DNA of 44,380 nt. Source: Candidatus Shapirobacteria bacterium (GTDB lineage: Bacteria > Patescibacteriota > Microgenomatia > UBA12405). How positions within the stretch are numbered: position 1 is the first letter of the stretch; every line of letters starts with the position of its first letter. The DNA lies in NCBI GenBank assembly GCA_030698565.1, contig JAUYJS010000003.1, positions 142,187 to 186,566 of the forward strand, given 5' to 3'. This document shows, piece after piece, positions 15,966 through 34,181 of the stretch. The translations under genes were made by a program, and so were the position numbers. The notes beneath the pieces are model-generated. The model saw only the letters and a list, made by a program, of their open reading frames with translations. It searched no databases and had not been told where the DNA came from.

Positions 15966-16039
15966 GTAGGGGCGACCCTGGCGGTCGCCCTATTATCTAA
16001 TCCATATTTATTCAGGGCGGGGGCTAGCCCCGCCCCTAC
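15966..16039. mobile_element. REPIN-like composite: hairpin B plus a ~21-nt AT spacer plus hairpin C, with inverted GTAGGGGCG...CGCCCCTAC ends
   Basis: B is GGGGCGACC-CTGGC-GGTCGCCC; C is GGGCGGGG-GCTAGC-CCCGCCC. The same ~74-nt unit recurs at 19930, 32163 and 33094. Confidence 0.75.
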
Positions 16040-16133
16040 AACCCTAAATTTACCCACCCTCTTCCCTTTATCGTGCCAATATCTACCTAATTTTATATTT
16101 ATAATTTATCACACAAAGATATTTAACCCCCCC

Positions 16134-16163
16134 TTGACAAACCTCTCTCTTTTTCATTATATT
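16134..16163 (+). promoter_or_regulatory. Sigma-70-like promoter candidate for P3
   Basis: TTGACA (16134-16139), 18-nt spacer, TATATT (16158-16163), about 35 nt upstream of ATG 16199. Confidence 0.4.
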
Positions 16164-16198
16164 TAATTAATATTGTCGACAAATTTTTGGCGGAAAAA

Positions 16199-17665
16199 AT
16201 GAAAAAAATTATTAACAGAGTTTTGGTTTTGAGTGTACTACTCTTTGTCATCCAGTTTTATATCAAAAACCACCCTTTAGAATCGGCCCCATCAACAAGT
16301 GTTAAGGATGTTTTATCTAGTTCTCAACTGTCTTATTTTGCCCGAATCGGTACCGGTACCACTGCTCTAGATACTATTATCGAAGTGTCTAATTCTGGCA
16401 ATCCATCAATCAACACCAATAACCTTTTTGTGGGCGACACTATCGGTATTGGCCGCAGCTCTGGTTTAGGAATTGATAGTTATGTTGTTCGGGATATTGG
16501 TAATACGGCTATCTTTCAAATAAATTCTGCCCTCGCTGTCAACAATGCCAAAGTTGGAAACATGATTATTGCCACTAGATCGGCCATTCATACAATCTAC
16601 TTCACTCCAAAAAGTAGCGTCGCTGGTGGTGCCTGGCAATTTTTAATAAAAGCAACTAGTCGAACAGGAGAAAACCACCAAGACGGTATTCCCGATCAAC
16701 AAGGTTTTGATTTAGGCTCGACTATCCCTTCAGGCGCTGCTACTGGTTTAGGTACCCGTCTCCAAGCCGCCGATATTTCCTGTCCTTTTGGCACCGCCAG
16801 TGTCGGCACCACTGCAGTAGTTAACTCTAATTCTTATCATGTGGTTACCTGTACTCTAGGAGCCGGCATCACCAATCCCATTGATGTCGGTGTCACTATG
16901 GTCATTGGTCGAGAACTTGCTAGTGGTAGCCAATTAATTAATCCAAGCGCCGCCCTAAACCACACCGAAGGCCAAGCTGACACCACTGCTGATGTTTATA
17001 CTTTCATGCTCCGCCACTTGGATTCCTCAAGTGTTCTTCTTGATAGTGATACTACTACCGGCAAAATTGCTGTGGTTGAATCAGTCCGAGTCACGGCTAC
17101 TGTCGACCCGACAATAACTTTTTATATTGATAATATTGGCGTTTCTGCTCCAAGTATGTCGCTTTGCGGTACCACCTTAGCTACCACAGCAGACAACACT
17201 ACTTCTACATCTGTGTCCTTTGGTTCCTTAAACCTTAATGCTTTTAATAATTTAGCCCAAAGACTCTCTTGTATTACCAATGCCGACGGTGGTTATTCGG
17301 TCACGGTTTATGAAACAGGTGTAATGAAAAATATTAATAGTGGCACCACTATTCCCGACACTAATTGCGACGGAGGCTGCAACACTACCACCGCGGCTGC
17401 ATGGGCTACCGATGTCGGTGCCAATGGTTCCGAGTGGGGTTATACCATGCAAAATACTAGTGTTGGTGTCACAATTTTTAATTACCAATCAGGTTGGAAA
17501 GCTTTTGGTATTGGTGCAGCTAACGCTAAAGAAATTATGAAAAATACAAATACACCAGGATCAATTGAGCAAGCCTACATTTGTTATCGAGTTACCGCCA
17601 GTACTATTCAAGAAGCTGGTAATTATGAAAACCACTTAGTTTATACCGCCACAGCTACATTTTAA
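16199..17665 (+). CDS. Secreted surface-operon protein P3 (large paralogue of P1)
   Basis: Signal-like MKKIINRVLVLSVLLFVIQ; IPDTNCDGGCN and C-terminal QEAGNYENHLVYTATATF motifs. The track start at TTG 16187 is less likely than ATG 16199. Confidence 0.6.
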   Translation: MKKIINRVLVLSVLLFVIQFYIKNHPLESAPSTSVKDVLSSSQLSYFARIGTGTTALDTIIEVSNSGNPSINTNNLFVGDTIGIGRSSGLGIDSYVVRDIGNTAIFQINSALAVNNAKVGNMIIATRSAIHTIYFTPKSSVAGGAWQFLIKATSRTGENHQDGIPDQQGFDLGSTIPSGAATGLGTRLQAADISCPFGTASVGTTAVVNSNSYHVVTCTLGAGITNPIDVGVTMVIGRELASGSQLINPSAALNHTEGQADTTADVYTFMLRHLDSSSVLLDSDTTTGKIAVVESVRVTATVDPTITFYIDNIGVSAPSMSLCGTTLATTADNTTSTSVSFGSLNLNAFNNLAQRLSCITNADGGYSVTVYETGVMKNINSGTTIPDTNCDGGCNTTTAAAWATDVGANGSEWGYTMQNTSVGVTIFNYQSGWKAFGIGAANAKEIMKNTNTPGSIEQAYICYRVTASTIQEAGNYENHLVYTATATF

Positions 17666-17673
17666 AAAACAAA

Positions 17674-18654
17674 ATGACAAAAATAACTAAAACATTTACA
17701 TTAATTACAGCCTTATTTTTATTTTCTAGCTCCTTTTATCAAATAAATGCCCAGTCTACTTCCGGTATTTCCGCCATACCTCCCCGATTAGAAATTACCG
17801 CTCTACCAGGTAAAACTATCAGTAAGGAAATTAAAGTTAGGAACGAGTCGAATGTTGAAAGAATATTGTCTACTTCAGTTAAGGATTTTATTGTCACCGA
17901 CGACAAAGGCACTCCGATTCAACTAGATTCTAATGTTTCCCAAAATAACCGTTGGGCTGCCAGTTCTTGGATTCATATTTCGGAAACTAAAATCAAGCTT
18001 AAAGCTGGTGAAACCAAATCATTGATTTTAACAGTCATTGTCCCCGACAATGCTCTGTCTGGAGGTCATTACGCCATGGTACTTCACAGTCCTAAAAACG
18101 AAACCATTCTTACCCAAACCGGATCAGCTGTCGAAACAAATGTTGGAACACTAGTTTATATTACTGTTCCAGGTGATATCAAACAAAATGCCCAAATTAA
18201 GGATTTTTCTGCTCCAAAATTTTTGGAATTCGGACCAGTCAAATTTATCTCCAACATCACCAATCTTTCCGATATACATATCGCTCCTGACGGTGTCATT
18301 GCTATTACCAACTGGTTTGGAGGCAATACCGCCAACATGGCTTTAGACAAAATAAATATTTTCCCCAATACTAGTCGTACTTTTAATAATATCTTAGATA
18401 AAAAATGGTTATTCGGACGCTATAAAGCCCAAATTTTAGCCGGCTACGGAACAGCCGGTGGTTCCTTAGTTGCAACCGTTTTCTTCTGGGTAATTCCATG
18501 GAGATTAATTATTTTAATTCTTATTTTTATCGCTCTAATAATTGCTTTAATTATCTTAAATAAAAACAAACCTCACCGCCAATCTCACGAAACAGTTGAA
18601 GATTTGGAAAAAGAATTGGAAGATTTAAAAAATAAATATAAAGACAATAAATAA
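17674..18654 (+). CDS. Surface-operon protein P4: signal peptide, Ig-like beta ectodomain, C-terminal TM and charged tail
   Basis: Signal ...SFYQINAQS; IPPRLEITALPGKTISKEIKVRNES beta-sandwich-like start; TM LIILILIFIALIIALIIL then ELEDLKNKYKD. Confidence 0.6.
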   Translation: MTKITKTFTLITALFLFSSSFYQINAQSTSGISAIPPRLEITALPGKTISKEIKVRNESNVERILSTSVKDFIVTDDKGTPIQLDSNVSQNNRWAASSWIHISETKIKLKAGETKSLILTVIVPDNALSGGHYAMVLHSPKNETILTQTGSAVETNVGTLVYITVPGDIKQNAQIKDFSAPKFLEFGPVKFISNITNLSDIHIAPDGVIAITNWFGGNTANMALDKINIFPNTSRTFNNILDKKWLFGRYKAQILAGYGTAGGSLVATVFFWVIPWRLIILILIFIALIIALIILNKNKPHRQSHETVEDLEKELEDLKNKYKDNK

Positions 18655-18655
18655 A

Positions 18656-19471
18656 ATATATCTATTTTTAATTTTATTTTCTCTAATTTTTCCCCAATCA
18701 TCATTTGCCCTAGATAAAGTTTCTTCCGCCAATATCACCGTCTCTGCCTCTATCGGAGAAAATCAAGTTACTATCACCGGTTTTACTTCCCCCCAATCTC
18801 GCGTCGAACTTAGTAGTCCCAAAACTTACGCGGTTACTTATAGTGACCCCACTGGCTTCTTTGAATTCGATCGAACTTTACTTCCCAAAGATCCTTCTGA
18901 TCTTTGTCTATCTTCTTTTGATGACTACAATCGTCAATCCACCCCCGTATGTATTCCACCACCCCCACCTACTAATTATCAAACCGACATCGGTCCAATT
19001 ATTTTGCCACCAACCATCGCTCTCAACGCAGCCACGATTCAACCCGGCAGCACTGTCGCCGCTTCAGGCCAAAGCTTACCCAATTCCCAAATCGAAATTT
19101 ATTTTTACAAAGTCGACGATAGTGCCTTGTCCTTTCCCAAAGCTGCCATGGCCTATTCTTTACCCATTCTAACTACAAAATCAGACCATCAAGGTAATTT
19201 TAATTTAAACTTACCCACGGCTTATTCGAGTAATTATCGTCTTTATGTTGCCACCAAATATCAGGATAATTTATCCCCCAAATCCAACACTCTGCTCTAT
19301 GTCATGCCTTCATTAATTTGGCTTTTTTGGTTAGAAAATAAAATATTAATTATTTTTTTGCCACTTTTTATTTTTACCCTTAGCTTTTTTATTTATCTTC
19401 TTGTCCAATATTCTTTACCCAAAAAACATTATCTCCCTGCGATACGAAATTTTTTACCGGCTGTTTGTTAA
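18656..19471 (+). CDS. Surface-operon protein P5, with no canonical start codon upstream of its signal peptide
   Basis: Hand translation of the frame open from 18650 gives IYLFLILFSLIFPQSSFALDKVSSANITVSAS..., continuous with track ORF 19004-19471. C-terminal TM present. The first ATG/GTG/TTG in frame is TTG 19004. Confidence 0.45.
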   Translation: MYLFLILFSLIFPQSSFALDKVSSANITVSASIGENQVTITGFTSPQSRVELSSPKTYAVTYSDPTGFFEFDRTLLPKDPSDLCLSSFDDYNRQSTPVCIPPPPPTNYQTDIGPIILPPTIALNAATIQPGSTVAASGQSLPNSQIEIYFYKVDDSALSFPKAAMAYSLPILTTKSDHQGNFNLNLPTAYSSNYRLYVATKYQDNLSPKSNTLLYVMPSLIWLFWLENKILIIFLPLFIFTLSFFIYLLVQYSLPKKHYLPAIRNFLPAVC

Positions 19472-19499
19472 TTTCCCTTTTCCAGAATATACTAAATAA

Positions 19500-19916
19500 G
19501 TGGCATCAAAAAAAATTATCTTCGTAATTATATTTCTTTCAATTTCGCTGATAGCTTCTATGTTCTTGGTACTAAGAACCACTGTTTTTTTTGGCAAAGC
19601 TACCAGTTCCAACAGTTCACCAATCGTTTTGGAAAATTCCTATCTCTTTGCCTCGCCTATCCAAGCCAAAGCCGATGGCAAAGAAAAAATTAGAATCACC
19701 GCCTTTCTTCTGGATGGTCAAGGTTTAGGCATTTCCAACCTCAAAGTCTCACTTCAATTGCCCCAAAATGTCTCCGTCCTCGCCATCCAATCTGTTACTG
19801 ACGATACCGGTAAAGCCGTCTTCGACCTTTCTTCTAGTGTTGCTAAACAATTAGACATTGCCGCCCAGGTCAACAACAAAACCATCCCCCAAAAAGTTAA
19901 GATTGTGTTTTATTAA
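19500..19916 (+). CDS. Small membrane-anchored Big_1-like (bacterial Ig-like) protein P6
   Basis: GTG start, TM, then ADGKEKIRITAFLLDGQGLGISNLKV...TDDTGKAVFDLSS, typical of invasin/intimin-type Ig domains. Confidence 0.55.
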   Translation: MASKKIIFVIIFLSISLIASMFLVLRTTVFFGKATSSNSSPIVLENSYLFASPIQAKADGKEKIRITAFLLDGQGLGISNLKVSLQLPQNVSVLAIQSVTDDTGKAVFDLSSSVAKQLDIAAQVNNKTIPQKVKIVFY

Positions 19917-19929
19917 AACCCACCCTTCT

Positions 19930-20003
19930 GTAGGGGCGACCCTGGCGGTCGCCCCATTATTTGATCCATTATTATTCAGGGCGGGGGCTAGCCCCGCCCC
20001 TAC
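19930..20003. mobile_element. REPIN-like composite B+C (copy 2)
   Basis: GTAGGGGCGACCCTGGCGGTCGCCCC-ATTATTTGATCCATTATTATTC-AGGGCGGGGGCTAGCCCCGCCCCTAC. Confidence 0.8.
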
Positions 20004-20014
20004 AGAATCAAAAA

Positions 20015-23000
20015 ATGTTATCCTTTTTATACACACTTATGCCTCGGTTACCTCATAAAATTATTTCTATTGGCAATCATTTTTCCTACAAATCCCTTTT
20101 CATTATTCTCTTCTTTTTACTAATTGGTATTGTGGCCTTATTTAAATTTTATCCTCAGAATAAAATTTCTGCTGCCTGGTGGAATGATGGCTGGGGGTAT
20201 CGGAAAGCGGTTTCTATCACTAATTCTAGTAGTACTATCACTAACCAATATGTAAAAATTACCCTTGATACGTCTGCTTTAATCACAGCTGGTAAAATAC
20301 AAAACAACTGCAACGACATCCGTGTTACAAACATCAATGGAAAATTATTAACTCACTTCATTGATGGTGACACTGAATATGATTGCAATGATACTGATAC
20401 ATCCATATATGCTCTAGTTGATTCTATCCCTTCCAATGGAACCACAATTTATATTTATTATGGTAATCCTTCAGCAGAAAATAACGAACCAGTATTAGGT
20501 TCATCAAATTACCCAGCCATTTCATGTCGCAACATTCTTGAACATAGAAGTGATAGTAATGGAACTGGAACATATTATATTACCCCAACAGGAAACCTGA
20601 GCGATAAAATACAAGTCTCCTGTGACATGAGTTACTCTAGTGGCGGGTGGATTCTAGTTTGGCATGGACTTCCATCCGAAGCTATGGTTAGAAACACTAG
20701 TAATGAAAGTGTTAGTTTAAGTAACGACATCATTTTTAACGAGATGCGTATGGAAGGAGTTAATTTAAACTTTAATGTTATCAGCTCTACTGTTGAAACC
20801 GCTAAACTAGCAAAATCCATTCCTCAACATTACTACGAAGTAGATAACACTTCAGATGCTACCAATCCTAAAGTCAATTTTTATGATCTAGACGGTAACC
20901 AAGATGTTCTTTTGTCAAATAACTATTTTATGTATGGATACGGCAATAGTTGGCGAGTCTTTTATACTTGTATAAATGTATCTGGCATAGATTACACTTA
21001 TTTGGGAGGGTATAGTCCAACATGCACTCCCAGAAGTTCATTTAATACTATTAGTGTTAGTTGTACAGGTGGTGGAAACAATTACTGTAATGGTAATGCT
21101 AGAAATACTTCACCAAAAGATAGTGGACTTGGACTATCACTATACGAATACCAAGAAACAAAGGTTTATATTAGAGAAAGCAATATTACTCTTGATGTTA
21201 ATCAAAGTGCTGGCTCACCTTCCACCGAAGAGCAATCCACCGCCCCCGTTGCCTATTGGAAATTTGACGAAGGTGTTGGTACTACTGCATACGATTCCAC
21301 TTCAAACCAAAATAATGCCACTATAAGTGGAGCAGCTTGGAAAACAGAAGATCAATGCATTTCTGGAAAATGTTTAAATTTTCCCAGCAGCGGAAGTATC
21401 ACCGCACTAAGCAATGCTCGTTTAAATTTCAGCACCAATAGTTTCACTATTTCCGCCTGGACACTTCTCCGCGATTATACCTATCCCAAATCAACCTTTA
21501 TGATTTCCAAAGAAGTTAATAATTGTTATGCAACGGGAAACCCTGGTTTTTATATTGGTCACGGTTATCAATCAAACGGCTCAGTCTTTTGTATTAATGA
21601 TGGTACTAATTATATTAATTCAACTCTTACTTATGATTCAGGTTATAAACCAGCCGACACTCAAAATAAATGGACTCATTTTGAATATATATTTGATCGT
21701 ACCGCCGGAAAAATTAAAGTTTATGTCAATGGTATAAAACAATCCAGTGAACTTGATATTTCTTCAGTCACTGGTAGTGTTAATAATTCTAGTAACTTGG
21801 TTATCGGAACACTTCATGGCTGGATGACCGACGGCAAAATAGATGATGTCAAAATTTATCCCTACGCCCGATCTGCAACGCAGATTAAACAGGATTATGC
21901 CGCAGGCAAGGCCCATTCATCTTCAACCAAAGGCACTTCTGTCAACCTCGGCGGCTCTAATCAATCCGGTGACTTTTTATCTAATGGATTGGTTGGATAT
22001 TGGAAAATGGACGAAGGTGTTGGTACAACTACTGCTGATAGTTCTGGGAATGGAAATACTGGAACATTATCAGGAGCTACTTGGTCGAGTGGAAAATTTG
22101 GAATTGGAACAAGTTTTGGAAGTGTCAATAGTAATGTAAGTTTAGGTAGTAGTGCTAATTTAAACACCGGAAATTATTTTACACTATCAGGTTGGTATAA
22201 ATTCAATTCGTTCAAAAGTGAAAACTATTTCTATAATCGTAATGGTCAGTCGGGAACAAGCGGTTTCCATATAGTTTGGATGGCGGGAGCCTCAAGCGAA
22301 ATACGTTATCAATATGCAAACGGTAGTACCTACAATACATTAAATTCTAATAGTCTAAGTTGGAATATTAATCAATGGTATTTTATATCAGTAGTCCACG
22401 ACCTAAATGCAAAAACAATAAATTTTTATCGTGACGGAGTCAATGTAGGAACTGCAAGTTATACAAACACAGCTCTCCCTGTTAGTAGCGGGACTGCATT
22501 TTTAGGAGGATACCAAGGAGATAATCGTTTTGATGGCTCTATTGACGACCTTCGTATTTACAACCGTGCCCTCTCCCCTTCCGAAGTTTCCCAACTTTAC
22601 AATTGGGCACCCGGACCAAAAGCCTACTATAATTTTGATGAGGGTTCAGGTTCTATTCTTAATGATCTATCAGGAAATAATTTTTCTGGTGTACTCAACA
22701 ATGTATCTTTTATTCCAGGTAAATATGGTAGGGCTGGAAAATTCAATGGAAGTGTCGATAGTTATGCCGACATAAACTACCAAGCCATCAATGGCCTTCA
22801 AGATTTTACTACTTCTTTCTGGATGAAATCGTCTGGTAGTGCAGATGGAATTATTTCAGGTGCAGGTAGTAATAGTGACAATGAACTTTTTATTGCTTAT
22901 CAACAGAATTTTGATATCCGAACTAGAAATGTTAATGTTGACACAAACATAAGCACCAATGATGGAGAATGGCACTTCATTTCAGTCACTCGAAACCAAT

Positions 23001-25314: not shown

Positions 25315-25571
25315 GTAGAGACGCACTGTGTGCGTCTCTTTATTTAAAATAAATATTTTATTGTTTGTAGAGACGCATACAATGCGTCTCTACAAAACAC
25401 AACATATCCAATGTAGGGGCGATTCATGAATCGCCCCTACCAACCCGTCATTGCGAGGACAAAGGACGAAGCAATCCCATTCTGTGTAGAGACGCGCTGC
25501 AGCGCGTCTCTACAAATATTCCACCAAATATTTGTTTTTTTCAATGAACAGACACAACGGTCTGTTCCTAC
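25315..25571. repeat. Ordered array of six hairpins: E, E, A, F, E, D
   Basis: E 25315-25339, E 25367-25393, A 25413-25440, F 25447-25478 (GTCATTGCGAGGACAAAGGACGAAGCAATCCC), E 25486-25513, D 25546-25571. Confidence 0.85.
25318..25345 (+). terminator. Intrinsic terminator formed by a family E hairpin plus a T-tract, downstream of G1
   Basis: GAGACGCAC-TGT-GTGCGTCTC followed by TTTATTT, about 20 nt after the G1 stop. Confidence 0.55.
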
Positions 25572-25802: not shown

Positions 25803-26090
25803 ATGAAACAAAGAAAATATACTTCTTTTGAAGAATATCTTAAAAAAAGTCTTAAAAATCCTGATTTTAAAAAAGTCTGGGATGATTCTGAAACCGAATA
25901 TCAACTTTCTCGACAAATAATTAAAAAGCGATTAAAAAATAAATTGACTCAACAAGATCTTGCCAAAAAAGCCAACACCACTCAAACGATTATTTCCCGA
26001 ATTGAATCAATGAATGGCAACCCCTCTTTACACTTTCTCAAAAAAATCGCCACCGCCCTCGACGCCAAGTTAAGTATTTCAATAAAATAA
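25803..26090 (+). CDS. XRE-family HTH antitoxin (HigA-like)
   Basis: LTQQDLAKKANTTQTIISRIESMNGNPSL HTH; the C-terminus LKKIATALDAKLSISIK nearly matches 33543-33839. Confidence 0.7.
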   Translation: MKQRKYTSFEEYLKKSLKNPDFKKVWDDSETEYQLSRQIIKKRLKNKLTQQDLAKKANTTQTIISRIESMNGNPSLHFLKKIATALDAKLSISIK

Positions 26091-26102
26091 TTCAAAGGGA
26101 TT

Positions 26103-26375
26103 TCATTCTAATCTCACCACCAATTTACTTCCCAAAGCACTCGCCACTTTCTTTAAAAAATCCAAACTTGGATTTACATCCCCCATTTCAAATCTAGATA
26201 ATGCCGATTGAGTTGTTCCCATCTTTTTTGCCAATTCTTTTTGAGTAATTTTCTTTTGATTTCTAATTCTAACCATATCACTCAATATCTGATACTCTAC
26301 TTCCAAACCATCATAGGTCTTTTTTACTTCAGAATTATTTAATATTTCTTTTTTTATTGTTTCCCAGTTATCCAT
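26103..26375 (-). CDS. XRE-family HTH antitoxin (HigA-like), second paralogue
   Basis: ITQKELAKKMGTTQSALSRFEMGDVNPSLDFLKKVASALGSKL. Confidence 0.7.
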   Translation of the reverse strand: MDNWETIKKEILNNSEVKKTYDGLEVEYQILSDMVRIRNQKKITQKELAKKMGTTQSALSRFEMGDVNPSLDFLKKVASALGSKLVVRLE

Positions 26376-26396
26376 AAAAATAATATAGCATAAACG

Positions 26397-26527
26397 CTAT
26401 ATTTCTGTCAATCGTCTAATTGCTGTTTTTAATTCCCTCTCATCAATCTAGCTCTGCCATCATTATCTAACTTACTCAAAAACTTTACAAATTCATCTTT
26501 TCTCAAAACATATATTTCATAAGACAT
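26397..26527 (-). pseudogene. Internally deleted and frameshifted Gp49/HigB-type toxin remnant
   Basis: Hand translation gives MSYEIYVLRKDEFVKFLSKLDNDGRARLMRGN then a stop, which is N-terminal toxin-like. A shifted frame then gives KTAIRRLTEI and a stop, matching the intact toxin's C-terminal KTAMIRIKQLTNI. The remnant's final stop is 21 nt from the antitoxin ATG, as in the intact module. Confidence 0.55.
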
Positions 26528-26572
26528 ATGTAATTATTATTACATAATTATTTTTTTAATTCATTTTTTAAT

Positions 26573-26610
26573 GAACAGACACAAAGGGGCGATTCATGAA
26601 TCGCCCCTAC
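26573..26610. repeat. Chimeric hairpin: left half of family D fused to family A lacking its GTA
   Basis: GAACAGACACAAA|GGGGCGATTCATGAATCGCCCCTAC. Confidence 0.7.
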
Positions 26611-26621
26611 AGAATCAAAAA

Positions 26622-26738
26622 ATGTTATCCTTTTTATACACACTTATGCCTCGTAATAAACCCACCACTAACATTAGATCCCCCTTTTTGAGGTCGTTAG
26701 ATCCTCGAAGAGGAGGGATTATAGGGGGTTTTAAATGA
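26622..26738 (+). CDS. 38-codon upstream ORF ending in an ATGA overlap with the G2 start
   Basis: MLSFLYTLMPRNKPTT... The first 11 codons are identical to the G1 N-terminal extension; AGGAGG lies about 18 nt upstream of ATG 26735. Confidence 0.3.
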   Translation: MLSFLYTLMPRNKPTTNIRSPFLRSLDPRRGGIIGGFK

Positions 26739-29700
26739 CCCGCTTTTCCTATAAATCCCTTTTCATTATTCTCTTCTTTCTACTGATTGGTATTGTGGCC
26801 TTATTTAAATTTTATCCTCAGAATAAAATTTCTGCTGCCTGGTGGAATGATGGTTGGGGGTATAGGACGAGGGTTGATGTTACCAATTCTTCCGGTTCTG
26901 ATCTTAGCAATCAAAGAATTAAAATTACGCTAAACACCTCTACTCTTATTTCCACTGGCAAGATGCAATCGGATTGTGATGATATTAGAGTTACTAGTCA
27001 AAGTGGTAAACTCCTTGACCATTGGGTAATAAATTGCAATAGTTCTTCATCTTCAGTCTATGTAAAAATGGAGGATCTTCCTAGCTCGGGGTCCAATGTG
27101 TTTGTTTATTATGGCAATCCTTCAGTTTCCAATATTGAGAATACATTGGGATCAACCAACTACCCAGGAACATCATGTCAAATGATGCGTGATCAGGGCA
27201 GTGTTACTTCTGATGGATTATATTACGTCACTCCAGGTGGCAACGATGATAATAAAATCCAGGTTTATTGTGACATGACTACTGATAGTAGTGGTTGGTC
27301 TTTAGTCCTTAACCACGTCTCAAGCTCTACACCTGGACCAAATCCCAACTGGAATCAAGTTGTGAATAATATTAATACATCAGGCACTTACAGTTCTGAC
27401 TTAACTTCGTTTTCCCTTTTTCTTGGAGTAAAGCATTGGAATTATCTAGGTGATTACATTAGAGTTGAAGTTGGATCAAGTCCAACAAGTATTACCAAGC
27501 GCTATGATTACACCAGCTTTTCATTAGATACTGGAAACTACTATGCGCTCACTATGTCTGGTGAAACTCAGATCACGGGAACTGGCTCACCGGGAATTTA
27601 TTCATATCATAATAACAGACCTTTAACTACAACAGATGCGGATCATGACGCCAGTGGAAGCAATTGTGCCAATAGCTATAACTATGCTTGGTGGTATGGT
27701 TCTTGTTGGAACGGAAGTTTTTGGGGTAGTACCGTTAGTCACCAAGATCGAGCATTTTGGACAGGGTCTACCTCTGACTACCATAACTACGGAGGACTAT
27801 GGCTCAAGGGAGACGATTCTATGGAAAATATCTCCACCGGTACCCCTGCCACCGAGGAACAATCCCTTGCCCCCATCGCCTATTGGAAATTTGATGAAGG
27901 TGTTGGTACTACTGCTTATGATTCCAGTTCAAGTGCCTTAAACGGTCTTATTAGTGCTGCCACCTGGCAAACTGAAGACCAATGTATGACTGGAAAATGT
28001 CTCTACTTTAACGAGTCAACAAGTTATGTAAGCTTAGGCACCAATAATACCCTCACTAAAAATATAACCAATATAACTATCAGCGCTTGGGTTAAATTGG
28101 GTAAAGATTTAGGTACCGTGTCCGATAATTATGAAATTATTTCCAACGAATCTTACCAAAATTATGGCTATTTGTTCAGAGTGGAAAACACTACCTCCAC
28201 TGCTACCGCCGGTAAAATTCATTTTAGGTTTAGCCAGGCGGGGGCCAGCACCAATGTTACCGCTCAATCCAATTCTTTTCCCAATGATCACCAATGGCAT
28301 TATCTCGTCGGAACTAAAAATGGTACAGTAGGAAAAATTTATTTAGATGGTAAAGAGATGACACTCTCTACAAATCAATCACTTTCTAATCCAGTGGATG
28401 CCTCCGGCGCTACTCAAATTGGCGGTATATCACAACGATGGAATGGCTTCCTTGACGACGTTAAAGTTTATCCCTATGCTCGATCTGCAACGCAGATTAA
28501 ACAGGATTATGCCGCAGGTAAGTCCCATTCATCTTCCACCAAAGGCACCTCGGCTAATTTAGGTTCTAGTAACCAAAATCTTTCCGCTCTCACCGACGGC
28601 CTAATTGGTTATTGGAAAATGGATGAAAACGTCGGAACAACAACTGTCGATTCTTCGGGAAATAATAATACTGCCACTCTCGGCACCGGCAATTCCGCCC
28701 CCACCTGGTCACCTGGAAAATACGGGGTTGGTTTAAGTTTCAATGGAACAACAAATTACATCAAGGTCTCTTACGATGCTTCATTAAAAAAGCCAGTGAG
28801 TGCAATTACAATGGGAGCATGGGTGAAGCTCAATAGCACCGGAGGTTGGCAGAGTGTGGTCCAATATCCTCAACAAGATGGAAGCCATGTCAGCACTTAT
28901 TTTGATTGGGCAATATATGTTGGTTCAGGGGGAGGGCTTCACACAAGAATTGATGGAGAAAGCTCAGGAACCTATGGTACTATATCTTGGGGTGAGTGGA
29001 CACATGTTGCTATAGCATGGGATGGTTCTTCTACTTTGGTTAAGTACTATATAAATGGAGCGTTAGTTGGAACCTATGATGGAACGAAGACAAGTATAGT
29101 ATATGACAACAACAACCCTGTTTATTTTGGACAAAACGCCGGAGGAGGTGAAAAACTCAGCGGTTCCCTCGACGAAGTCCGTATCTACAACCGTGCCCTC
29201 TCCCCTTCCGAAGTTTCCCAACTCTACAATTGGGCACCCGGACCAATTGGTTATTGGGATTTTAATGAAAATGTAGGCACTACTGCTTATGATAAAAGTG
29301 GTAACAACTACAGTGGATCATTAGGCGCTGATAATTATTCTCCTACATGGGACATTGGAAAATATGGTTCTGGATTAAAATTTAATGGCAATCAATTTGT
29401 AAATTTAACCAGATTTGCCAATAAAGGCATTTCCGTAAATTTATCAAATTTTACAGTTTCAACTTTTATTAAGCCAACATTAATTAATGGAAACTCAAAA
29501 GCCATTTATGTCGAAGGCGCCGGTGGTTCAACTGGTAGTTCTTGGGCAGGTATTTTTTTGGTTAATAATGAAATTAGAGTTCATTTTAAAACTTATAATA
29601 CTGGCGACTTAATTTTATATGATACTGTTGGAGCAAATGTTACTGCTAATAATATTTATTATATTACAGTAACTCGAACCGGAAACAATTTCACTACATA

Positions 29701-32035
29701 TGTAAATGGCATTATTCGCGGCACAGGGACCCATTCAGGGGCCAGTTGGAACAGTTATCCTCCTGGAGTTTCACCCAGCATTGGTGATCACCATTATTAT
29801 TCTAATTCAAAATTTTTTTCAGGGATCATCGACGATGTCAAAATTTATAACTACCCTCGCAACCAAAGACAAATTATCGAAGACATGAACGCCGGCCACC
29901 CTATTGGCGGCTCCCCGGTCGGTTCCCAACTAGCTTATTGGAAAATGGACGAAGGCTATGGATCAACCACCAACAATTCCGGCTTTGGAGGTTCTGTTTT
30001 AAATGGTACTTTTGGCACCGGCAACTCCGCCCCCACCTGGACTAATAATGGTAAGTTCAACAAAGCTTTAAGTTTCGATGGCGGGGATTATACAACCATT
30101 AGTGATAATCCTGCCCTCGATATAGGTTATTCGGGTAGCATTTCCATTTCAGTTTGGTACTACTCTACTACTGCTGATACTAATACCCATACTATTTTAG
30201 CCAAACGCCAAACCGACTCCAGCACTAATACAGATTATATATTATTTATTTCAAATAATTATTTAACCTGGGGGACAGGAGATTCAACTGATTCTGTCGC
30301 CTGGATGTCCATTACTGAGCCATCCAGAAACCAATGGCATCAGATAGTTGCTGTCTTGTCTCGTGATACCAGTCTAACAGGAACAAAATATTTATATGTT
30401 GATGGAAATTTAGTTTCTTCTGGAACTTATGCAACTAAAGCTAATGCAACCAGCACTCCATTATATATCGGTAAATATAATGGAAGTGGAGCTTTTTGGG
30501 AAGGCCTTATTGATGAAGTTAAAATTTACAACACAGCCTTAACTGCTGAAGATATCAAACTAGATTATAATCGAGGTTCTGCCATAGTTATGGGCAATTT
30601 AGGAACCAATTCATCAGGCGCTGTCGATGCTTCTTCAAATAGATCATACTGTATCCCCGGCGATACTTCGACCTGCAACCCCCCAGTCGGCGAATGGAAA
30701 TTTGAGGAAGGTGTGGGGACTACTGCTTATGATACCAGCGGCAATAATAATAATGGAATTTGGCAAGGCACACTTGGCAATCAATGGTCCCAAGGTAAAA
30801 TTGGTAAAGCCGGTAGTTTTAATGGCGCCAATAATTATATTTTAGGAACAAACAATTTAGGAATTTCCGGAAATGCAGAATTTACCATGTGTGCCTGGAT
30901 GAAATGGATCGGAATTTCATGGCCATCAGATTATCCATCATTTATGGGAAACAATTCAACCGGCTCTACCAATAACGGATTAAGTTTTACTGTTTATCAA
31001 GGCAGACCTGCAATTGATTTTTGGGTAAATCGTTGGCGAGCCTCAAACGCCTTATCTTTAAATACTTGGTATTATGTTTGTGGTACTAAAACAGCCGGAA
31101 CAATTTCAACCACATCAAAAATTTATGTAAATGGACAGCTAGTTTCAGGAGCAGTGGAAGGAACTGACACAACACCAAATATTACCGATTCACCTCCTGT
31201 AATAGGAAGGTTAGACGGAACACGTTGGTTTCAAGGTCTCATCGATCAAGCAGAATACTTTAACTACGCCCGCACACCAGCTCAAGTCGCCTGGGACTAC
31301 AACCGCGGTGGACCTGTGGGTCACTGGAAATTTGACGAATGCCAAGGATCTATAGTTTACGATTCTTCTGGTGTCGGCACCACTGGTGGTATATCAATTG
31401 GTACCTCTGGAACCCAAAATTCCCTTGGAACCTGTGCTGTTGGCACATCAGCAGCCTGGACCAATGGCGCTAGCGGTAAACTCAACTCATCGCTAAGTTT
31501 TGACGGAATCGACGACTATATAAACTTAGGAAACAATACCAACTTAAATCCTCAACAACACGGCTGGTCAACATCTTTCTGGGTTAAATCAAGTCAAAAG
31601 ACGAGTCAAAACGGTGGTTATGTTAGGGTTATGGGTAGAATTTCTGGAGGTGCTCCTTATTGGATATTGAGAACTCACACAAATAATGGAGATTATGCTG
31701 TTATGCAAATGTTAGATGCTAGTAGCAACAGTGGAGGTGTCAGCGGAACTAATACAGTTACTGATGGTGTTTGGCATCATCTTGTGTTCGTTTACGATTA
31801 TAATAATTCTAAGTCTTACATATATCTAGACGGAGTTAGGGATGGATATAACGACTGGACAGGAACAAGTATGGGTACTGTAAATCCGTCTCTTCCCCTA
31901 CATATAGGTCAGGCCAACGCTAATTCAGAATTCTTTTCCGGCCAAATTGATGATGTTCGTATTTATAATTACGCTCTCACCGCCACCCAAACCAAAACTC
32001 TTTACAATAATGGGGCTGTGAATTTTTCGAATTAA
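26735..32035 (+). CDS. Giant surface protein G2: TM anchor, DUF2341, canonical fibrinogen-related domain, six LamG domains
   Basis: Same architecture as G1. Fibrinogen-like motifs: SC..., YYVTPGG...IQVYCDM, TTTDADHDASGSNCANSYNYAWWYGSCWNGSFWG. Confidence 0.85.
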   Translation: MTRFSYKSLFIILFFLLIGIVALFKFYPQNKISAAWWNDGWGYRTRVDVTNSSGSDLSNQRIKITLNTSTLISTGKMQSDCDDIRVTSQSGKLLDHWVINCNSSSSSVYVKMEDLPSSGSNVFVYYGNPSVSNIENTLGSTNYPGTSCQMMRDQGSVTSDGLYYVTPGGNDDNKIQVYCDMTTDSSGWSLVLNHVSSSTPGPNPNWNQVVNNINTSGTYSSDLTSFSLFLGVKHWNYLGDYIRVEVGSSPTSITKRYDYTSFSLDTGNYYALTMSGETQITGTGSPGIYSYHNNRPLTTTDADHDASGSNCANSYNYAWWYGSCWNGSFWGSTVSHQDRAFWTGSTSDYHNYGGLWLKGDDSMENISTGTPATEEQSLAPIAYWKFDEGVGTTAYDSSSSALNGLISAATWQTEDQCMTGKCLYFNESTSYVSLGTNNTLTKNITNITISAWVKLGKDLGTVSDNYEIISNESYQNYGYLFRVENTTSTATAGKIHFRFSQAGASTNVTAQSNSFPNDHQWHYLVGTKNGTVGKIYLDGKEMTLSTNQSLSNPVDASGATQIGGISQRWNGFLDDVKVYPYARSATQIKQDYAAGKSHSSSTKGTSANLGSSNQNLSALTDGLIGYWKMDENVGTTTVDSSGNNNTATLGTGNSAPTWSPGKYGVGLSFNGTTNYIKVSYDASLKKPVSAITMGAWVKLNSTGGWQSVVQYPQQDGSHVSTYFDWAIYVGSGGGLHTRIDGESSGTYGTISWGEWTHVAIAWDGSSTLVKYYINGALVGTYDGTKTSIVYDNNNPVYFGQNAGGGEKLSGSLDEVRIYNRALSPSEVSQLYNWAPGPIGYWDFNENVGTTAYDKSGNNYSGSLGADNYSPTWDIGKYGSGLKFNGNQFVNLTRFANKGISVNLSNFTVSTFIKPTLINGNSKAIYVEGAGGSTGSSWAGIFLVNNEIRVHFKTYNTGDLILYDTVGANVTANNIYYITVTRTGNNFTTYVNGIIRGTGTHSGASWNSYPPGVSPSIGDHHYYSNSKFFSGIIDDVKIYNYPRNQRQIIEDMNAGHPIGGSPVGSQLAYWKMDEGYGSTTNNSGFGGSVLNGTFGTGNSAPTWTNNGKFNKALSFDGGDYTTISDNPALDIGYSGSISISVWYYSTTADTNTHTILAKRQTDSSTNTDYILFISNNYLTWGTGDSTDSVAWMSITEPSRNQWHQIVAVLSRDTSLTGTKYLYVDGNLVSSGTYATKANATSTPLYIGKYNGSGAFWEGLIDEVKIYNTALTAEDIKLDYNRGSAIVMGNLGTNSSGAVDASSNRSYCIPGDTSTCNPPVGEWKFEEGVGTTAYDTSGNNNNGIWQGTLGNQWSQGKIGKAGSFNGANNYILGTNNLGISGNAEFTMCAWMKWIGISWPSDYPSFMGNNSTGSTNNGLSFTVYQGRPAIDFWVNRWRASNALSLNTWYYVCGTKTAGTISTTSKIYVNGQLVSGAVEGTDTTPNITDSPPVIGRLDGTRWFQGLIDQAEYFNYARTPAQVAWDYNRGGPVGHWKFDECQGSIVYDSSGVGTTGGISIGTSGTQNSLGTCAVGTSAAWTNGASGKLNSSLSFDGIDDYINLGNNTNLNPQQHGWSTSFWVKSSQKTSQNGGYVRVMGRISGGAPYWILRTHTNNGDYAVMQMLDASSNSGGVSGTNTVTDGVWHHLVFVYDYNNSKSYIYLDGVRDGYNDWTGTSMGTVNPSLPLHIGQANANSEFFSGQIDDVRIYNYALTATQTKTLYNNGAVNFSN

Positions 32036-32052
32036 AATTAATATTATCCATT

Positions 32053-32325
32053 GTAGAGACGCGCTGCAGCGCGTCTCTACAAAACACAACATATCCAATG
32101 TAGGGGCGATTCATGAATCGCCCCTACCAAACGTAAACATTATATTTAATTCCGCCCATTCTGTAAGGGCGACCCTGGCGGTCGCCCCATTATTTGATCC
32201 ATTATTATTCAGGGCGGGGGCTAGCCCCGCCCCTACGTTTTTTTAATGAACAGACACAAAGGTCTGTTCCTACAATCATATTTCCCCATTTATCCGTCAT
32301 TGCAAGGACAAAGGACGAAGCAGAT
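32053..32325. repeat. Hairpin array E, A, B+C, D, F downstream of G2
   Basis: E 32053-32080, A 32100-32127, B+C 32163-32236, D 32248-32273, F-variant 32296-32325. Confidence 0.85.
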
Positions 32326-32847
32326 TTAATCTCGAATCATCTTTCTCTTTATCTCCACCACCCCAGTACAATTCCTCATCATTGCCCGACTTAATTTTTT
32401 CTCAAACCCAACATAAATTATTTTCTTTTTCACTACCTTTGCCTCCAATATTGCTGGAACAATATCTGTATCAGAAGAAATCAAATAACAAACATTATAC
32501 TCATTTTTTAAAGCTCCGGCGGTAATCTCCACCGCCATTTTTACGTCAACACCTTTTTCGTGATACTTACCGTCACTTTTCAACATAAAACCTTTATAAA
32601 CTTCAATTTTTTGTTGTTCTAAATTATAAAATAATGACTGTTGTTGAGCATACATTCCCTCTGCCTTTTTATTTCCAGATTCCCTCTTAATTTCTCCCAC
32701 ACAATATAATATTCTCATTCCTTTTTGCCCAACTACTTTTTCCACTAATTTTCGATAATTAAAATTTGTTAAATGAACTTCAGGACACAAATTTTTACTT
32801 CCATGATAAAAATTACTCCCATCTATTATTACCAATAATTTATCCAT
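32326..32847 (-). CDS. NYN-domain (LabA/DUF88-like, PIN-related) predicted RNase
   Basis: LVIIDGSNFYH..., EKGVDVKMAVEI, YLISSDTDIVPAI. ATG 32847 is preferred over the track's GTG 32862. Confidence 0.7.
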   Translation of the reverse strand: MDKLLVIIDGSNFYHGSKNLCPEVHLTNFNYRKLVEKVVGQKGMRILYCVGEIKRESGNKKAEGMYAQQQSLFYNLEQQKIEVYKGFMLKSDGKYHEKGVDVKMAVEITAGALKNEYNVCYLISSDTDIVPAILEAKVVKKKIIYVGFEKKLSRAMMRNCTGVVEIKRKMIRD

Positions 32848-32868
32848 AGTTAAATTTACCACAAAGCC

Positions 32869-32904
32869 AAAAAAAACCTCCAGGTCCTATTACAGAACTG
32901 GAGG
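32869..32904 (-). terminator. Canonical intrinsic terminator on the minus strand, located upstream of the NYN gene
   Basis: On the minus strand: CCTCCAG-N14-CTGGAGG followed by T8. Confidence 0.55.
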
Positions 32905-32984
32905 GATTTAGCTTATTTAAGAACACCTTAATTCTATCAAGAATCTAAAAATAAACAATAATCAAACCCCTTTTTCTTTTGTCC

Positions 32985-33169
32985 ATAGAGACGCATACAA
33001 TGCGTCTCTATAAAACACAACATATCCAATGTAGGGGCGATTCATGAATCGCCCCTACCAAACGTAAACATTATATTTAATTCCACCCATTCTGTAGGGG
33101 CGACCCTGGCGGTCGCCCCATTTTGTTTAATTCATTTTTATTCAGGGCGGGGGCCAGCCCCGCCCCTAC
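32985..33169. repeat. Hairpin array E, A, B+C; a direct repeat of 32053-32236
   Basis: E-variant 32985-33011, A 33031-33058, B+C 33094-33169. The inter-hairpin spacers are also conserved (AAAACACAACATATCCAAT; CAAACGTAAACATTATATTTAATTCC). Confidence 0.85.
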
Positions 33170-33190
33170 CAAAAACCACATCTTAATTTT

Positions 33191-33208
33191 ATGTAATAAT
33201 AATTACAT
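33191..33208 (+). promoter_or_regulatory. Operator-like palindrome ATGTAAT-N4-ATTACAT overlapping the toxin start codon
   Basis: The same motif sits immediately upstream of the decayed toxin start (26528-26545). Confidence 0.4.
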
Positions 33209-33521
33209 GGAAACATTTTTTATTAACCCAGATTTAAGAGAATATATTTATTCATTGGATAAAGCGACATTATCAAAATTCATTAGATTATCTGATCTGT
33301 TAGAAACATATGGAGAAAAATTGGGCATGCCATATTCAAAAAAAATTCAGAAGAATCTTTATGAATTAAGAATCCATGGTCAACGCGAAATCCGCGTATT
33401 TTATTGTTTCTATCGAGACAAAACTGTTTTTGTCCACGCAATTATTAAAAAATCCAGAAAAACACCAACTCAAGACATAAAAACAGCAATGATAAGAATT
33501 AAACAATTAACAAACATATAA
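33207..33521 (+). CDS. Intact Gp49/HigB-type toxin (RelE/ParE superfamily)
   Basis: 104 aa; LYELRIHGQREIRVFYCFYRDKTVFVHAIIKKSRKTP is typical of phage Gp49-like (DUF891) toxins. The track start at 33123 lies inside hairpin C. Confidence 0.7.
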   Translation: METFFINPDLREYIYSLDKATLSKFIRLSDLLETYGEKLGMPYSKKIQKNLYELRIHGQREIRVFYCFYRDKTVFVHAIIKKSRKTPTQDIKTAMIRIKQLTNI

Positions 33522-33536
33522 CATATATGTTATAAT
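33517..33536 (+). promoter_or_regulatory. 18-bp perfect palindrome TATAACATATATGTTATA overlapping an extended -10 (TGTTATAAT), 7 nt before the antitoxin ATG
   Basis: Read directly; the spacing implies a leaderless or near-leaderless antitoxin transcript. Confidence 0.35.
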
Positions 33537-33542
33537 AAGCTT

Positions 33543-33839
33543 ATGAAAATTTCAAATAAAATAAATCTCGTCCCTTTTTCTGAATTCAAAAAGAAAGCTC
33601 TTATGGATCCTGAAATCAAAGCCGAATATGATCGGCTTGGGCCAGAATACGAAATCATCGAAGCAATTATTCGTAAACGACTTGAAATTGGTATTTCCCA
33701 AAAACAATTAGCCGAAAAAATGGGCACCAAACAATCAGCTCTCTCCCGTCTGGAATCCGGTAACTACAATCCATCTCTCGCATTTCTAAAAAAAGTTGCC
33801 GCCGCCCTCGACGCCAAGCTAAGTATCTCAATGAAATAA
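33543..33839 (+). CDS. XRE-family HTH antitoxin (HigA-like) of the intact module
   Basis: ISQKQLAEKMGTKQSALSRLESGNYNPSLAFLKKVAAALDAKLSISMK. Confidence 0.75.
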   Translation: MKISNKINLVPFSEFKKKALMDPEIKAEYDRLGPEYEIIEAIIRKRLEIGISQKQLAEKMGTKQSALSRLESGNYNPSLAFLKKVAAALDAKLSISMK

Positions 33840-33853
33840 AAAAACACCCTATC

Positions 33854-34181
33854 GTAGGCGCAGACCTTTGTGTCTCTGCCCAAACAACAAATTTTTCAAA
33901 TTAAAATTAATATTATCCAACGTAGAGACGCGCTGCAGCGCGTCTCTTTATTTAAAATAAATATTTTATTGTTTATGAGAGACGCATACAATGCGTCTCT
34001 ACAAAAAAATCCCACCCATTTTTAATTTATTTTTTAATGAACAGACACAAGGGTCTGTTCCTACAAATATTATTTTCCGATTTATTAATACGCCATTGCG
34101 AGGAGGCTTTGCGACGACCTGCCTGCCGGCAGGCAGGAGCAATCCCATTGTCTGTAGAGACGCGCTGCAGCGCGTCTCTAC
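33854..34181. repeat. Hairpin array: D-like, E (with T-tract), E, D, long F, E
   Basis: 33854-33880, 33922-33947, 33977-34002, 34039-34064, 34093-34148 (contains the nested CCTGCCTGCCGGCAGGCAGG), 34154-34181. Confidence 0.85.

Follow-up and report, generated by a model that had tools for sequence, protein, structure and literature searches.

A 44,380-nt stretch of a Candidatus Shapirobacteria genome (hereafter the window) carries many short GC-rich hairpins bounded by GTAG and CTAC, which raises the question of what these hairpins are and how they came to their positions. A family-by-family Hamming scan of the window found 34 footed GC-rich hairpins between 9417 and 36491 (Table 1), a density of 34 elements in 27 kb, in a genome whose GC content is about 36%: nine of family A, four each of B and C, two B-like, six D, eight E and one G. 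All 34 elements are units of 25–29 nt. In 30 of them at least one foot is an exact GTAG or CTAC; the remaining four have GTAC, GTAA or ATAG/CTAT. When perfect GC-rich stems with a minimum length of 7 bp were sought separately, 36 hairpins were detected, of which 26 are footed by an exact GTAG or CTAC; 20 Markov shuffles gave 0–8 hairpins (about 4), with at most one tagged per shuffle. The family A core GGGCGATTCATGAATCGCCC, identical at 20 of 20 positions in all nine copies, occurred exactly nine times in the window versus zero in 100 shuffles. A sequence-only reading of this DNA had named the stems and put the copies at about 35, at very high density; every named stem was found, but the set does not stay within 15966–34181, where that reading had placed it, since only 24 of the 34 elements lie there and family G is at 35944.

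The same reading had described at least seven families with unrelated stems and common GTAG/CTAC bounds. The bounds held, whereas the stems fell into three groups: a GGGCG-type (A, B, C and B-like copies, with GGGCG/CGCCC proximal to the foot), an AGACGC-type (E) and a G(G/A)ACAG-type (D and G, which have ACAG in common). A, E and G are 27–28 nt "double-foot" palindromes in which GTAG and CTAC form the outer 4 bp of a perfect palindrome, and in the inverted dimers B-C and D-D' the feet lie on the outside. B and C differ solely by three compensated stem pairs and one loop base. DNA hairpin stabilities ranged from −6 to −14 kcal/mol (z −3.3 to −9.9). The D-D' dimer folded into a single long hairpin (−15.3 kcal/mol), and the B-C dimer folded as two separate hairpins because its arms differ in three pairs. 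Outside GTAG...CTAC, the flanks of 66 independent copies showed no palindromy (2.7 matches per 10 versus 2.5 expected); the GTAG...CTAC hairpin is a discrete unit with sharp borders. Intergenic DNA holds 26 of the 34 elements, for the most part right behind the 3' ends of genes, with clusters at 25315–25571, 32053–32273, 32985–33169 and 33854–34181, and the other eight lie in frame inside ORFs. Two known classes were considered and set aside: intrinsic terminators, in which a T run comes straight after a GC-rich stem and which lie at gene ends only, match just a part of the B, C and single-foot E copies, and IS200/IS605-derived MITEs (PATE) have distinct left and right subterminal hairpins around an IS remnant, whereas these units are single 25–29 nt hairpins with borders at the feet and no IS remnant, TnpA or TnpB was found in the 44-kb window.

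Table 1. Footed hairpins of the window, in order of position.
Element	Position	Strand	Context
A, double-foot 28-nt palindrome	9417..9444	.	in frame, LeuRS editing (CP1) domain, aa 293-301 VGAIHESPL, site 2
A	9549..9576	.	in frame, LeuRS CP1, aa 249-257, site 1
D-like, GTAC foot	10190..10215	+	left half of inverted D-D' dimer; in frame, LeuRS N-terminus
D, CTAC at 3' end on + strand	10223..10248	-	right half of LeuRS D-D' dimer
A	13190..13217	.	in frame, ComEA-like protein, linker between SLBB and HHH domains
A, GTAC/CTAC feet	15899..15926	.	codes most of last ten residues VRAIHESPLQ of ORF 15026-15931, just 5' of stop
B, 5' GTAG foot	15966..15991	+	left arm, B-C dimer copy 1
C, 3' CTAC foot	16015..16039	-	right arm, B-C dimer copy 1
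B	19930..19955	+	B-C dimer copy 2; 14 nt past Big_1 gene stop; terminator-like
C	19979..20003	-	B-C dimer copy 2
E variant, left foot only	25315..25341	+	then TTTATTT; 18 nt past giant gene 1 stop; terminator-like
E2, double-foot 27-mer	25367..25393	.	
A	25413..25440	.	in E-A module
E, double-foot 28-mer	25486..25513	.	
D, 3' CTAC foot	25546..25571	-	
D/A chimera	26566..26610	-	D left arm and loop (GAACAGACACAAAGG) fused to A core and CTAC
E	32053..32080	.	18 nt past giant gene 2 stop
A	32100..32127	.	in E-A module
B, GTAA foot	32163..32188	+	B-C dimer copy 3
C	32212..32236	-	B-C dimer copy 3; then T run; terminator-like
D	32248..32273	-	
E2, degenerate feet ATAG/CTAT	32985..33011	.	
A	33031..33058	.	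in E-A module
B	33094..33119	+	B-C dimer copy 4; terminator-like
C, loop CCAGC	33145..33169	-	B-C dimer copy 4
D-like, imperfect, 5' GTAG foot	33854..33879	+	15 nt past HTH gene stop
E, left foot only	33922..33949	+	then TTTATTT; terminator-like; identical in Logan contig L159
E2, right foot only	33976..34002	-	
D	34039..34064	-	
E, double-foot 28-mer	34154..34181	.	
B-like GGGCGTCC/GGACGCCC, CTAC foot	35037..35065	-	
B-like GGGCGCCC, GTAC/CTAC feet	35325..35353	.	
G, GTAC/CTAC feet	35944..35971	.	in frame (QYGQVATCPYT), Phage_int_SAM-only ORF 35783-36295
A, GTAC/GTAC feet	36464..36491	.	in frame (VRAIHESPV), near N-terminus of giant ORF 36299->44380+

Comparison with related genomes, a check for family turnover that the sequence-only reading had proposed, revealed gains and losses: relatives at 89–94% nucleotide identity have different sets of copies. 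The LeuRS gene of the window has three insertions (site 1, site 2 and the D-D' dimer). Both the dimer and site 1 are missing in relative L280 (93.5% nucleotide identity), where site 1 reads GTAGGGGGTGG and is shorter by 18 nt. The dimer peptide VGTDRSVCSKKAQTQGSV was found in none of seven aligned full-length LeuRS orthologues, an eighth (P0190) being without the region, and four other LeuRS orthologues carry E-type peptides at other positions. Site 2 is also present in relative L281, as a CCCGTAC variant, and is absent from L280; the ComEA-linker copy is common to L280, whose contig begins at that element. Some of these filled and empty sites are unclean: at site 1 the allele shorter by 18 nt already has GTAGGGG, and site 2, like the ComEA linker, shows a replacement rather than a clean insertion. 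The WecG gene of L281 shows a G-type 30-nt gain that is absent from the window and from L287, the outgroup by which it is polarised. In the syntenic 22.5 kb of L287, a more distant relative, no footed hairpin was found. Since close relatives differ in the presence of copies, these results show mobility in the lineage. In the reading frame of the G element at 35944, a GTAG foot would make a TAG stop.

The exact 20-mer A core was found in at least 120 genome stretches of many phyla and in 35 IMG/VR stretches, mostly flanked by GTAG/CTAC; by our own estimate, chance would give about 0.5 occurrences in 596 Gb. In phage structural modules, element A was observed at most gene junctions. The exact 28-mer of A lies in frame in RayT-like genes of other phyla (L084, L049 and L093). 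The L084 gene (5230–5772) is a RayT according to NF047646 (E=1.3e-15), with a weak PF01797 match, and its nearest solved structure is 4ER8, TnpA-REP. Here A sits in the ORF 3' of the HUH motif, as it does in L049 and L093, and VGAIHE(S/L)PL directly follows the HUH motif in nearly all of the best 120 RayT homologues; the RayT motifs NH[IFV]H, WQ and YIxNNP are present in L084 and its homologues. Another RayT, P0113, contains the compensated A variant GTAGGGGCAATTCATGAATTGCCCCTAC; two of the five contigs have this variant again about 1 kb further downstream. Among 120 metagenome loci, 12 RayT ORFs contain E-type hairpins. For families B, C, D and G the tie to RayT is one of anatomy only, by foot and hairpin. 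The named matches of two RayT searches belong to Bacteroidota, Ignavibacteria, Calditrichia, Spirochaetota, KSB1 and similar groups. The proposal that GTAG hairpins are REPs of the RAYT type is supported by A and E inside RayT genes elsewhere, and the phenomenon is not limited to proteobacteria.

The RAYT reading of the hairpins is supported, indirectly but strongly. By sequence they are GTAG-tagged REPs, of the types tied to RayT/TnpA-REP subclass 2.4 (RAYT group 4), and we consider it probable that they were moved by RayT. By analogy, with steps drawn from work on E. coli TnpA-REP and IS200/IS605, we infer a resident RayT acting on single-stranded DNA: each unit would fold into a hairpin when single-stranded, chiefly at the replication fork, the Y1/HUH RayT would bind the stem and the GTAG foot, and its catalytic tyrosine would cut and then rejoin the DNA, so that copies spread. 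The RayT gene would lie outside the window or have been lost recently. Elements have built up in 3' intergenic regions of the Candidatus Shapirobacteria genome, and copies in genes have survived where the sole stop-free frame (VGAIHESPLQ for A) falls in a loop, linker or tail.

A different origin, which we regard as unlikely, is that these are genuine RayT-type REPs in a genome without its own RayT, being relics or having been spread by an outside RayT (from phage or host DNA uptake) or by copying that needs no transposase, for instance gene conversion or template switching where short homologies occur. No transposase or RayT was found in the 44-kb window by Pfam searches of its ORFs or by RayT HMM searches of six-frame fragments of at least 15 aa, as the sequence-only reading had stated; none was found in 40 kb of relatives' DNA, and none among the protein-search matches listed could be attributed to Patescibacteria. 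This origin is also favored by the phage gene-junction copies of A, by the presence of the competence genes ComEC and ComEA, by the GTAGGGG of the empty site 1 allele and by the D/A chimera joined at a GG overlap, the last two of which fit microhomology copying. On the other hand, absence of RayT from 44 of 186.6 kb of one contig proves little, RayT genes are usually single-copy, and the microhomology cases number only two. The nine identical A cores and the clean, outgroup-polarised gain in WecG suit an active enzyme better than relics.

Some copies were multiplied as parts of larger units. The B-C unit (91 nt) is present in four copies and the E-A unit (88 nt) in three, each with a conserved spacer; a 58-nt repeat, which covers the 3' end of giant gene 1 and of giant gene 2 together with the E copy that comes next, is found again at 33890, and the NYN gene is bracketed by clusters of about 200 nt that are direct repeats. 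Copy number is partly due to duplicated composite modules rather than independent events. That it arose mainly by segmental duplication of a few such modules, paralogous giant surface-protein genes and small cassettes, and not by transposition of single elements, is very improbable: solitary copies with unrelated flanks lie in LeuRS and ComEA and in the hyp301, Int_SAM and giant ORFs, the borders of the same 28-mer are sharp throughout many phyla, and single elements come or go between strains. Therefore, duplication adds copies but cannot be their origin. Finally, ordinary terminators or RNA regulatory stems evolved in place and never mobile are scarcely credible, for although the intergenic positions, mostly right behind genes, and 34 terminator-like sites in the region versus 15.3 in shuffles (several B, C and single-foot E copies included) would suit them, the eight copies within ORFs, the double-foot copies without T runs, the same sequences at unrelated loci and in many phyla, and the lack of such elements where a related Shapirobacteria genome is syntenic do not. 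Some single-foot copies with T runs probably now serve as terminators or mRNA-end stabilisers, a use best seen as secondary.

Among known systems, the elements resemble Rickettsia palindromic elements (RPE) in being in-frame palindromic repeats kept in coding genes of a reduced genome. RPE-1-type elements are, however, about 100–150 bp, compared with 25–29 bp here, and they are not known to have a GTAG foot or a RayT link. The E. coli REP/BIME system with TnpA-REP (RayT, PDB 4ER8) likewise combines a hairpin with a GTAG guide for a Y1 transposase; E. coli REPs, unlike the elements here, are longer, bulged and single-footed, and E. coli RayT belongs to subclass 2.2, with no REP in its gene. GTAG-dependent binding and cleavage of single-stranded REP is known only for E. 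coli TnpA-REP. A REPIN, an inverted REP pair with a spacer, is regarded as what RAYT mobilises (Bertels & Rainey 2011, PMC3116915); D-D' folds to one long hairpin as Pseudomonas REPINs do, whereas three compensated pairs separate arm B from arm C. REPIN/RAYT systems are described in that literature as mostly inherited vertically within a lineage, unlike element A, the same 28-mer of which occurs across many phyla. By description, the elements are like the GTAG-tagged REP superfamily, which has 24 published family consensus sequences, 20–40 bp palindromes with a GTAG tag, several families per genome, and singles, head-head dimers and clusters mostly downstream of ORFs, with in-frame intragenic copies known even in tRNA synthetases (Di Nocera 2013, BMC Genomics 14:522, PMC3733652). 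That survey covered 8 phyla and predates common candidate-phyla-radiation (now Patescibacteria) genomes. Subclass 2.4, that is, RAYT group 4, has 'double foot' REPs and a REP within the RayT gene, directly past the HUH motif, and its hosts are Cyanobacteria, Bacteroidetes and 'various phyla', with Patescibacteria unlisted (Quentin 2018, BMC Genomics 19:475, PMC6006769). The window differs from it in its Patescibacteria host, in having no RayT adjoining the elements and in its very high local density. Features shared with subclass 2.4 are a single palindrome bearing GT[AG]G 5' and C[TC]AC 3' (seen in the G copy and the majority of A and E copies), the stem base of three G-C pairs, the RayT motifs noted above for L084 and its homologues, the scatter over many phyla and, for A and E-type in other organisms, the same REP inside the RayT gene. 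The REP phenomenon is already known, also outside proteobacteria; here it reaches a high density in the ultra-small genome of a member of the Patescibacteria, with some copies in frame within essential genes.

We scanned the window for perfect GC-rich stems and found 36 hairpins, 26 of which carried an exact GTAG or CTAC tetranucleotide at the base (the foot), whereas Markov shuffles contained 0–8 hairpins with at most one tagged. A family-by-family scan gave 34 footed elements (A ×9, B ×4, C ×4, B-like ×2, D ×6, E ×8 and G ×1). Folded as single strands of DNA, these elements reach −6 to −14 kcal/mol, far below shuffles, and the core of element A, GGGCGATTCATGAATCGCCC, was present in nine exact copies against zero expected. 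These results demonstrate that the GTAG/CTAC-ended hairpins noticed in the sequence-only reading are real. The range proposed there, 15966–34181, holds 24 of the 34; the remainder lie outside it, and the true span is 9417–36491.

Elements A, E and G form palindromes of 27–28 nt, perfect or nearly so, whose outermost four pairs are GTAG and CTAC ("double foot"), while B has only the 5′ GTAG and C only the 3′ CTAC. B and C were never found apart: four copies of the unit, GTAG-B-24 nt-C-CTAC, are present, the spacer being conserved, and its two stems have GGGCG..CT(G/A)GC..CGCCC in common and differ at three compensated stem pairs. D has a CTAC foot when single and forms one inverted D-D′ dimer, folding as one long hairpin. 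Because of such shared stem features, the seven stems previously taken as unrelated reduce to three groups, although the hairpin families themselves are present. Duplication of composite modules accounts for part of the copy number; the E-A module is present in three copies, and a 58-nt repeat extends over the 3′ ends of both giant genes and the next E copy. Small accessory cassettes appear to gather at the REP clusters as at a hotspot. A third type of repeat, CGTCATTGCGAGGA...GAAGCAATCCCATT, lacks the GTAG foot; two of its three copies stand directly 5′ of an E copy.

Positions of elements, repeats and neighbouring genes in the window
Position	Feature	Detail
9417–9444	Element A in LeuRS (site 2)	VGAIHESPLQ at aa 293
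9549–9576	Element A in LeuRS (site 1)	VGAIHESPLQ at aa 249
15026–15931	ORF	C-terminal tail formed by A
25445–25481	Third repeat type	
25803–26375	Two HTH genes	Between REP clusters
26566–26610	D/A chimera	D left arm and loop, then A core and CTAC foot; joint is a short overlap
32053–33169	~200-nt direct repeats of the E-A-B-C cluster	931-nt spacing; flank the NYN-domain gene
32294–32325	Third repeat type	Interrupted by NYN gene 3′ end
32326–32847 (minus)	NYN-domain gene	
33201–33839	Gp49/HigB-HTH pair	Between REP clusters
33890	58-nt repeat, further copy	
34090–34149	Third repeat type	Inner perfect palindrome CCTGCCTGCCGGCAGGCAGG at 34118–34137
35783–36295	ORF	Starts with integrase-type SAM-like (core-binding) domain, without catalytic domain
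36299–44380	ORF, consecutive with the preceding	Same start, without catalytic domain; >2,690 aa beyond it with ~20 GNVGIGTTNP-type repeats and no Pfam match there

The window (44.4 kb, bacterial, ~33–45% GC) encodes MurB, WecG, MreB, a PEGA protein, an M16 peptidase, LeuRS, ComEC-like and ComEA-like proteins, two paralogous Laminin_G_3 proteins of 1,770 aa each, small toxin-antitoxin-like genes, the NYN gene and a giant ORF running past the window end, together with tRNA-Pro and tRNA-Arg; an Rfam search of the window matched two tRNAs and nothing else. The best named relatives of its LeuRS belong to Candidatus Shapirobacteria (Patescibacteria), and the contig encoding this LeuRS is 186,566 nt long. 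GC skew is strongly negative over 1–20000 (−0.26 to −0.46) and near zero at 20–32 kb. Most elements (26 of 34) are intergenic, mostly close behind stop codons, and a terminator-like score was obtained for some copies of B, C and single-foot E that precede a T run. The other eight lie inside ORFs, each in open frame. Two A copies are in the CP1 editing domain of LeuRS, both encoding peptides at gap positions of Thermus LeuRS, and a D-D′ dimer lies near the N-terminus of the same protein. A is also found in the ComEA-like protein, in the linker between SLBB and HHH, and early in the giant ORF. A Phage_int_SAM-only ORF holds G, where a GTAC foot averts the in-frame TAG stop of a GTAG foot. Among related Patescibacteria, LeuRS varies from 783 to 1,003 aa, and several orthologues also match NUDIX (PF00293; the set noted was P0124, P0138, P0150, P0153 and P0167).

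Three syntenic contigs of relatives were compared, L280 (93.5% nucleotide identity), L281 (89%) and the outgroup L287 (a 1.1-Mb contig, LeuRS 66% identical). Gene order in L287 agrees with that of the window over 22.5 kb, and no footed hairpin was found in that stretch. L280 has the ComEA copy in common with the window, and its contig begins at that element; its LeuRS is without the D-D′ dimer and site 1 A, and has a different sequence at site 2. In L281, site 2 is shared with one substitution, and WecG contains a G-type element, present neither in the window nor in L287, as a clean 30-nt (10-codon) gain. E-type peptides were found at other positions in four of 120 related LeuRS proteins (named matches mostly Shapirobacteria), one of them at the same CP1 site. 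These copy differences indicate that the elements are recent arrivals and still turning over. As side observations, L280 LeuRS has an additional ~130-aa insert after the editing domain (P0122; L280:4001–4424), and relatives' short-read contigs end at REPs: L280:1–28 is exactly element A, and L281 starts (1–20) ~10 nt past LeuRS site 1. The Logan contig carrying an identical HTH protein in sample SRR26726065 is only 956 nt long, and an exact search with the window's LeuRS gave no match.

The L280 site 1 allele without A (L280:3590–3610 versus window 9547–9578) already reads GTAGGGGGTGG; the element's first 7 nt (GTAGGGG) are present, and the difference is 18 nt, not 28 or 30. This allele could be a remnant, or could reflect a target preference or microhomology copying. 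At site 2 and in the ComEA linker, comparison with relatives shows sequence replaced, not simply inserted. These odd sites and the D/A chimera would be compatible with strand exchange at the feet or template-switch copying, in cases too few for a decision. Conserved regulatory stems are ruled out by the presence/absence differences among relatives. On anatomy, DNA uptake sequences were rejected for the several different cores and the recurrence of the same core in many phyla, and CRISPR arrays for the irregular spacing.

The exact 20-mer core of A was found in 35 IMG/VR stretches and, among species-representative genomes, in at least 120, with ~0.5 chance matches in 596 Gb by our own estimate. 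The genome matches listed include Dehalococcoidia, Ignavibacteria, Clostridia, Acidobacteria, Delta- and Gammaproteobacteria, Fibrobacterota, Omnitrophota, Nitrospirae, Planctomycetia, Vampirovibrionales and cyanobacteria; element A is not confined to the window's lineage. GTAG and CTAC, or variants one base away, border the core at these loci, and complementarity beyond the feet is close to chance (2.7 of 10 positions, 2.5 expected). The palindrome thus ends exactly at the feet, indicating that A is a discrete 28-bp unit; insertion into existing hairpins and inverted target duplication, which imply palindromic flanks, were rejected. The E stem pattern, GTAGAGACGC-N3-9-GCGTCTCTAC, was found in at least 120 metagenomic loci on contigs of 28–68% GC. 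Clustering of neighbours gave no recurrent partner gene beside A, only related phage contigs grouping together. One siphovirus-like IMG/VR module of ~55% GC (L012:1–8090; also L001, L004, L005, L007 and L015) has A at most gene junctions, with six copies in 8 kb among major head, adaptor, head closure, neck, tail terminator, major tail and tape measure genes. Phages or prophages therefore have the same REP and could move A between hosts.

In locus L084 (Ignavibacteriales), A is contained in an ORF of 180 aa with a match to NCBIfam REP_Tyr_transpos (E=1.3e-15) and a weak one to Pfam Y1_Tnp; the closest solved structure to its product is that of E. coli TnpA-REP (4ER8), identifying it as a RayT transposase. 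Nearly all of this protein's best 120 homologues have VGAIHE(S/L)PL straight after the HUH strand (MPNHFHGII...), and many show tandem partial duplications. Since phmmer with E. coli RayT gave one weak match on the ORFs of 155 loci, an HMM of the 120 homologues was used instead and revealed two further A-bearing RayT genes (L049 and L093). RayT P0113, from 31%-GC genomes, embeds a doubly compensated A variant, GTAGGGGCAATTCATGAATTGCCCCTAC, with a second copy ~1 kb downstream in two of five contigs. In a second subfamily (WQPRFYDHIIR), an E-type hairpin occupies the linker as VET..ASL(Q) in 12 of 120 listed loci. Across homologues P0001–P0120 and P0241–P0360 (171–302 aa), the linker after the HUH motif is hypervariable, REP halves being partially duplicated in tandem, for example as (IHELP)n, (VGAIP)n and (GLHD)n before VETHGRASLQ; this variation suggests slippage at the hairpin embedded there.

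The window encodes no transposase, as the earlier reading had stated, and RayT HMMs run on six-frame fragments of at least 15 aa from the window and relatives matched only REP-encoded peptides. Among the RayT homologues examined none was attributable to Patescibacteria, a protein search with the E-type RayT returned Bacteroidota-type matches, and no close relative of the window was among the fetched loci. The most AT-rich A-type RayT was rejected as a Patescibacteria candidate, as it adjoins DUF2851 on 31%-GC contigs and has no link to the window's lineage. With none in the window and none attributable to Patescibacteria, we can only infer a resident RayT in this genome. It is conceivable, though rather unlikely, that A is a pan-bacterial mobile 28-mer with an in-frame master copy in a RayT gene (VGAIHESPL), transposase and substrate forming one package carried also on phages, and that a reduced Patescibacteria genome was recently colonised, perhaps without a resident RayT, copies spreading in trans or through template switching at the GTAG foot. 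If this were true, double constraint as RayT peptide and REP substrate would explain why A is frozen across many phyla.

Patescibacteria genomes are ~1 Mb and usually regarded as streamlined, and yet an essential LeuRS tolerates three inserted peptides derived from REPs. Relatives only 6–11% apart offer pairs of filled and empty sites, including an outgroup-polarised 30-nt gain, which is rare for REPs, and such pairs could serve to read off insertion rules; one paper calls the mechanism of REP spread poorly understood (PMC8266576). In addition, REPs break short-read assemblies of such genomes and yield spurious small ORFs and odd peptides (VGAIHESPLQ, VET..ASLQ) in protein databases. Our literature search found no paper tying a RAYT or REPIN to Patescibacteria and no match to the element sequence itself.

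GTAG-tagged REPs have been known since 2013; one genome can hold several families, the units also form dimers and clusters, and some copies lie within genes, tRNA synthetase genes among them (PMC3733652). Elements of this kind are thus already described. The novelty lies in the host lineage, as RayT-type REPs are now seen in Patescibacteria too, in their local density, in the three insertions within LeuRS, in gains and losses between strains, and in how widely a single 28-mer is shared among phyla and phages. TnpA-Y1 subclass 2.4 (RAYT group 4) has "double foot" REPs, also in frame within tnpA-REP between HuH and Y, and motifs NH[IFV]H, WQ and YIxNNP, and is scattered over phyla (PMC6006769). 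The double feet of A and E, their in-frame copies within RayT genes elsewhere, the motifs and the phylum scatter all agree with this subclass, supporting the interpretation of the window hairpins as REP/RAYT-type elements.
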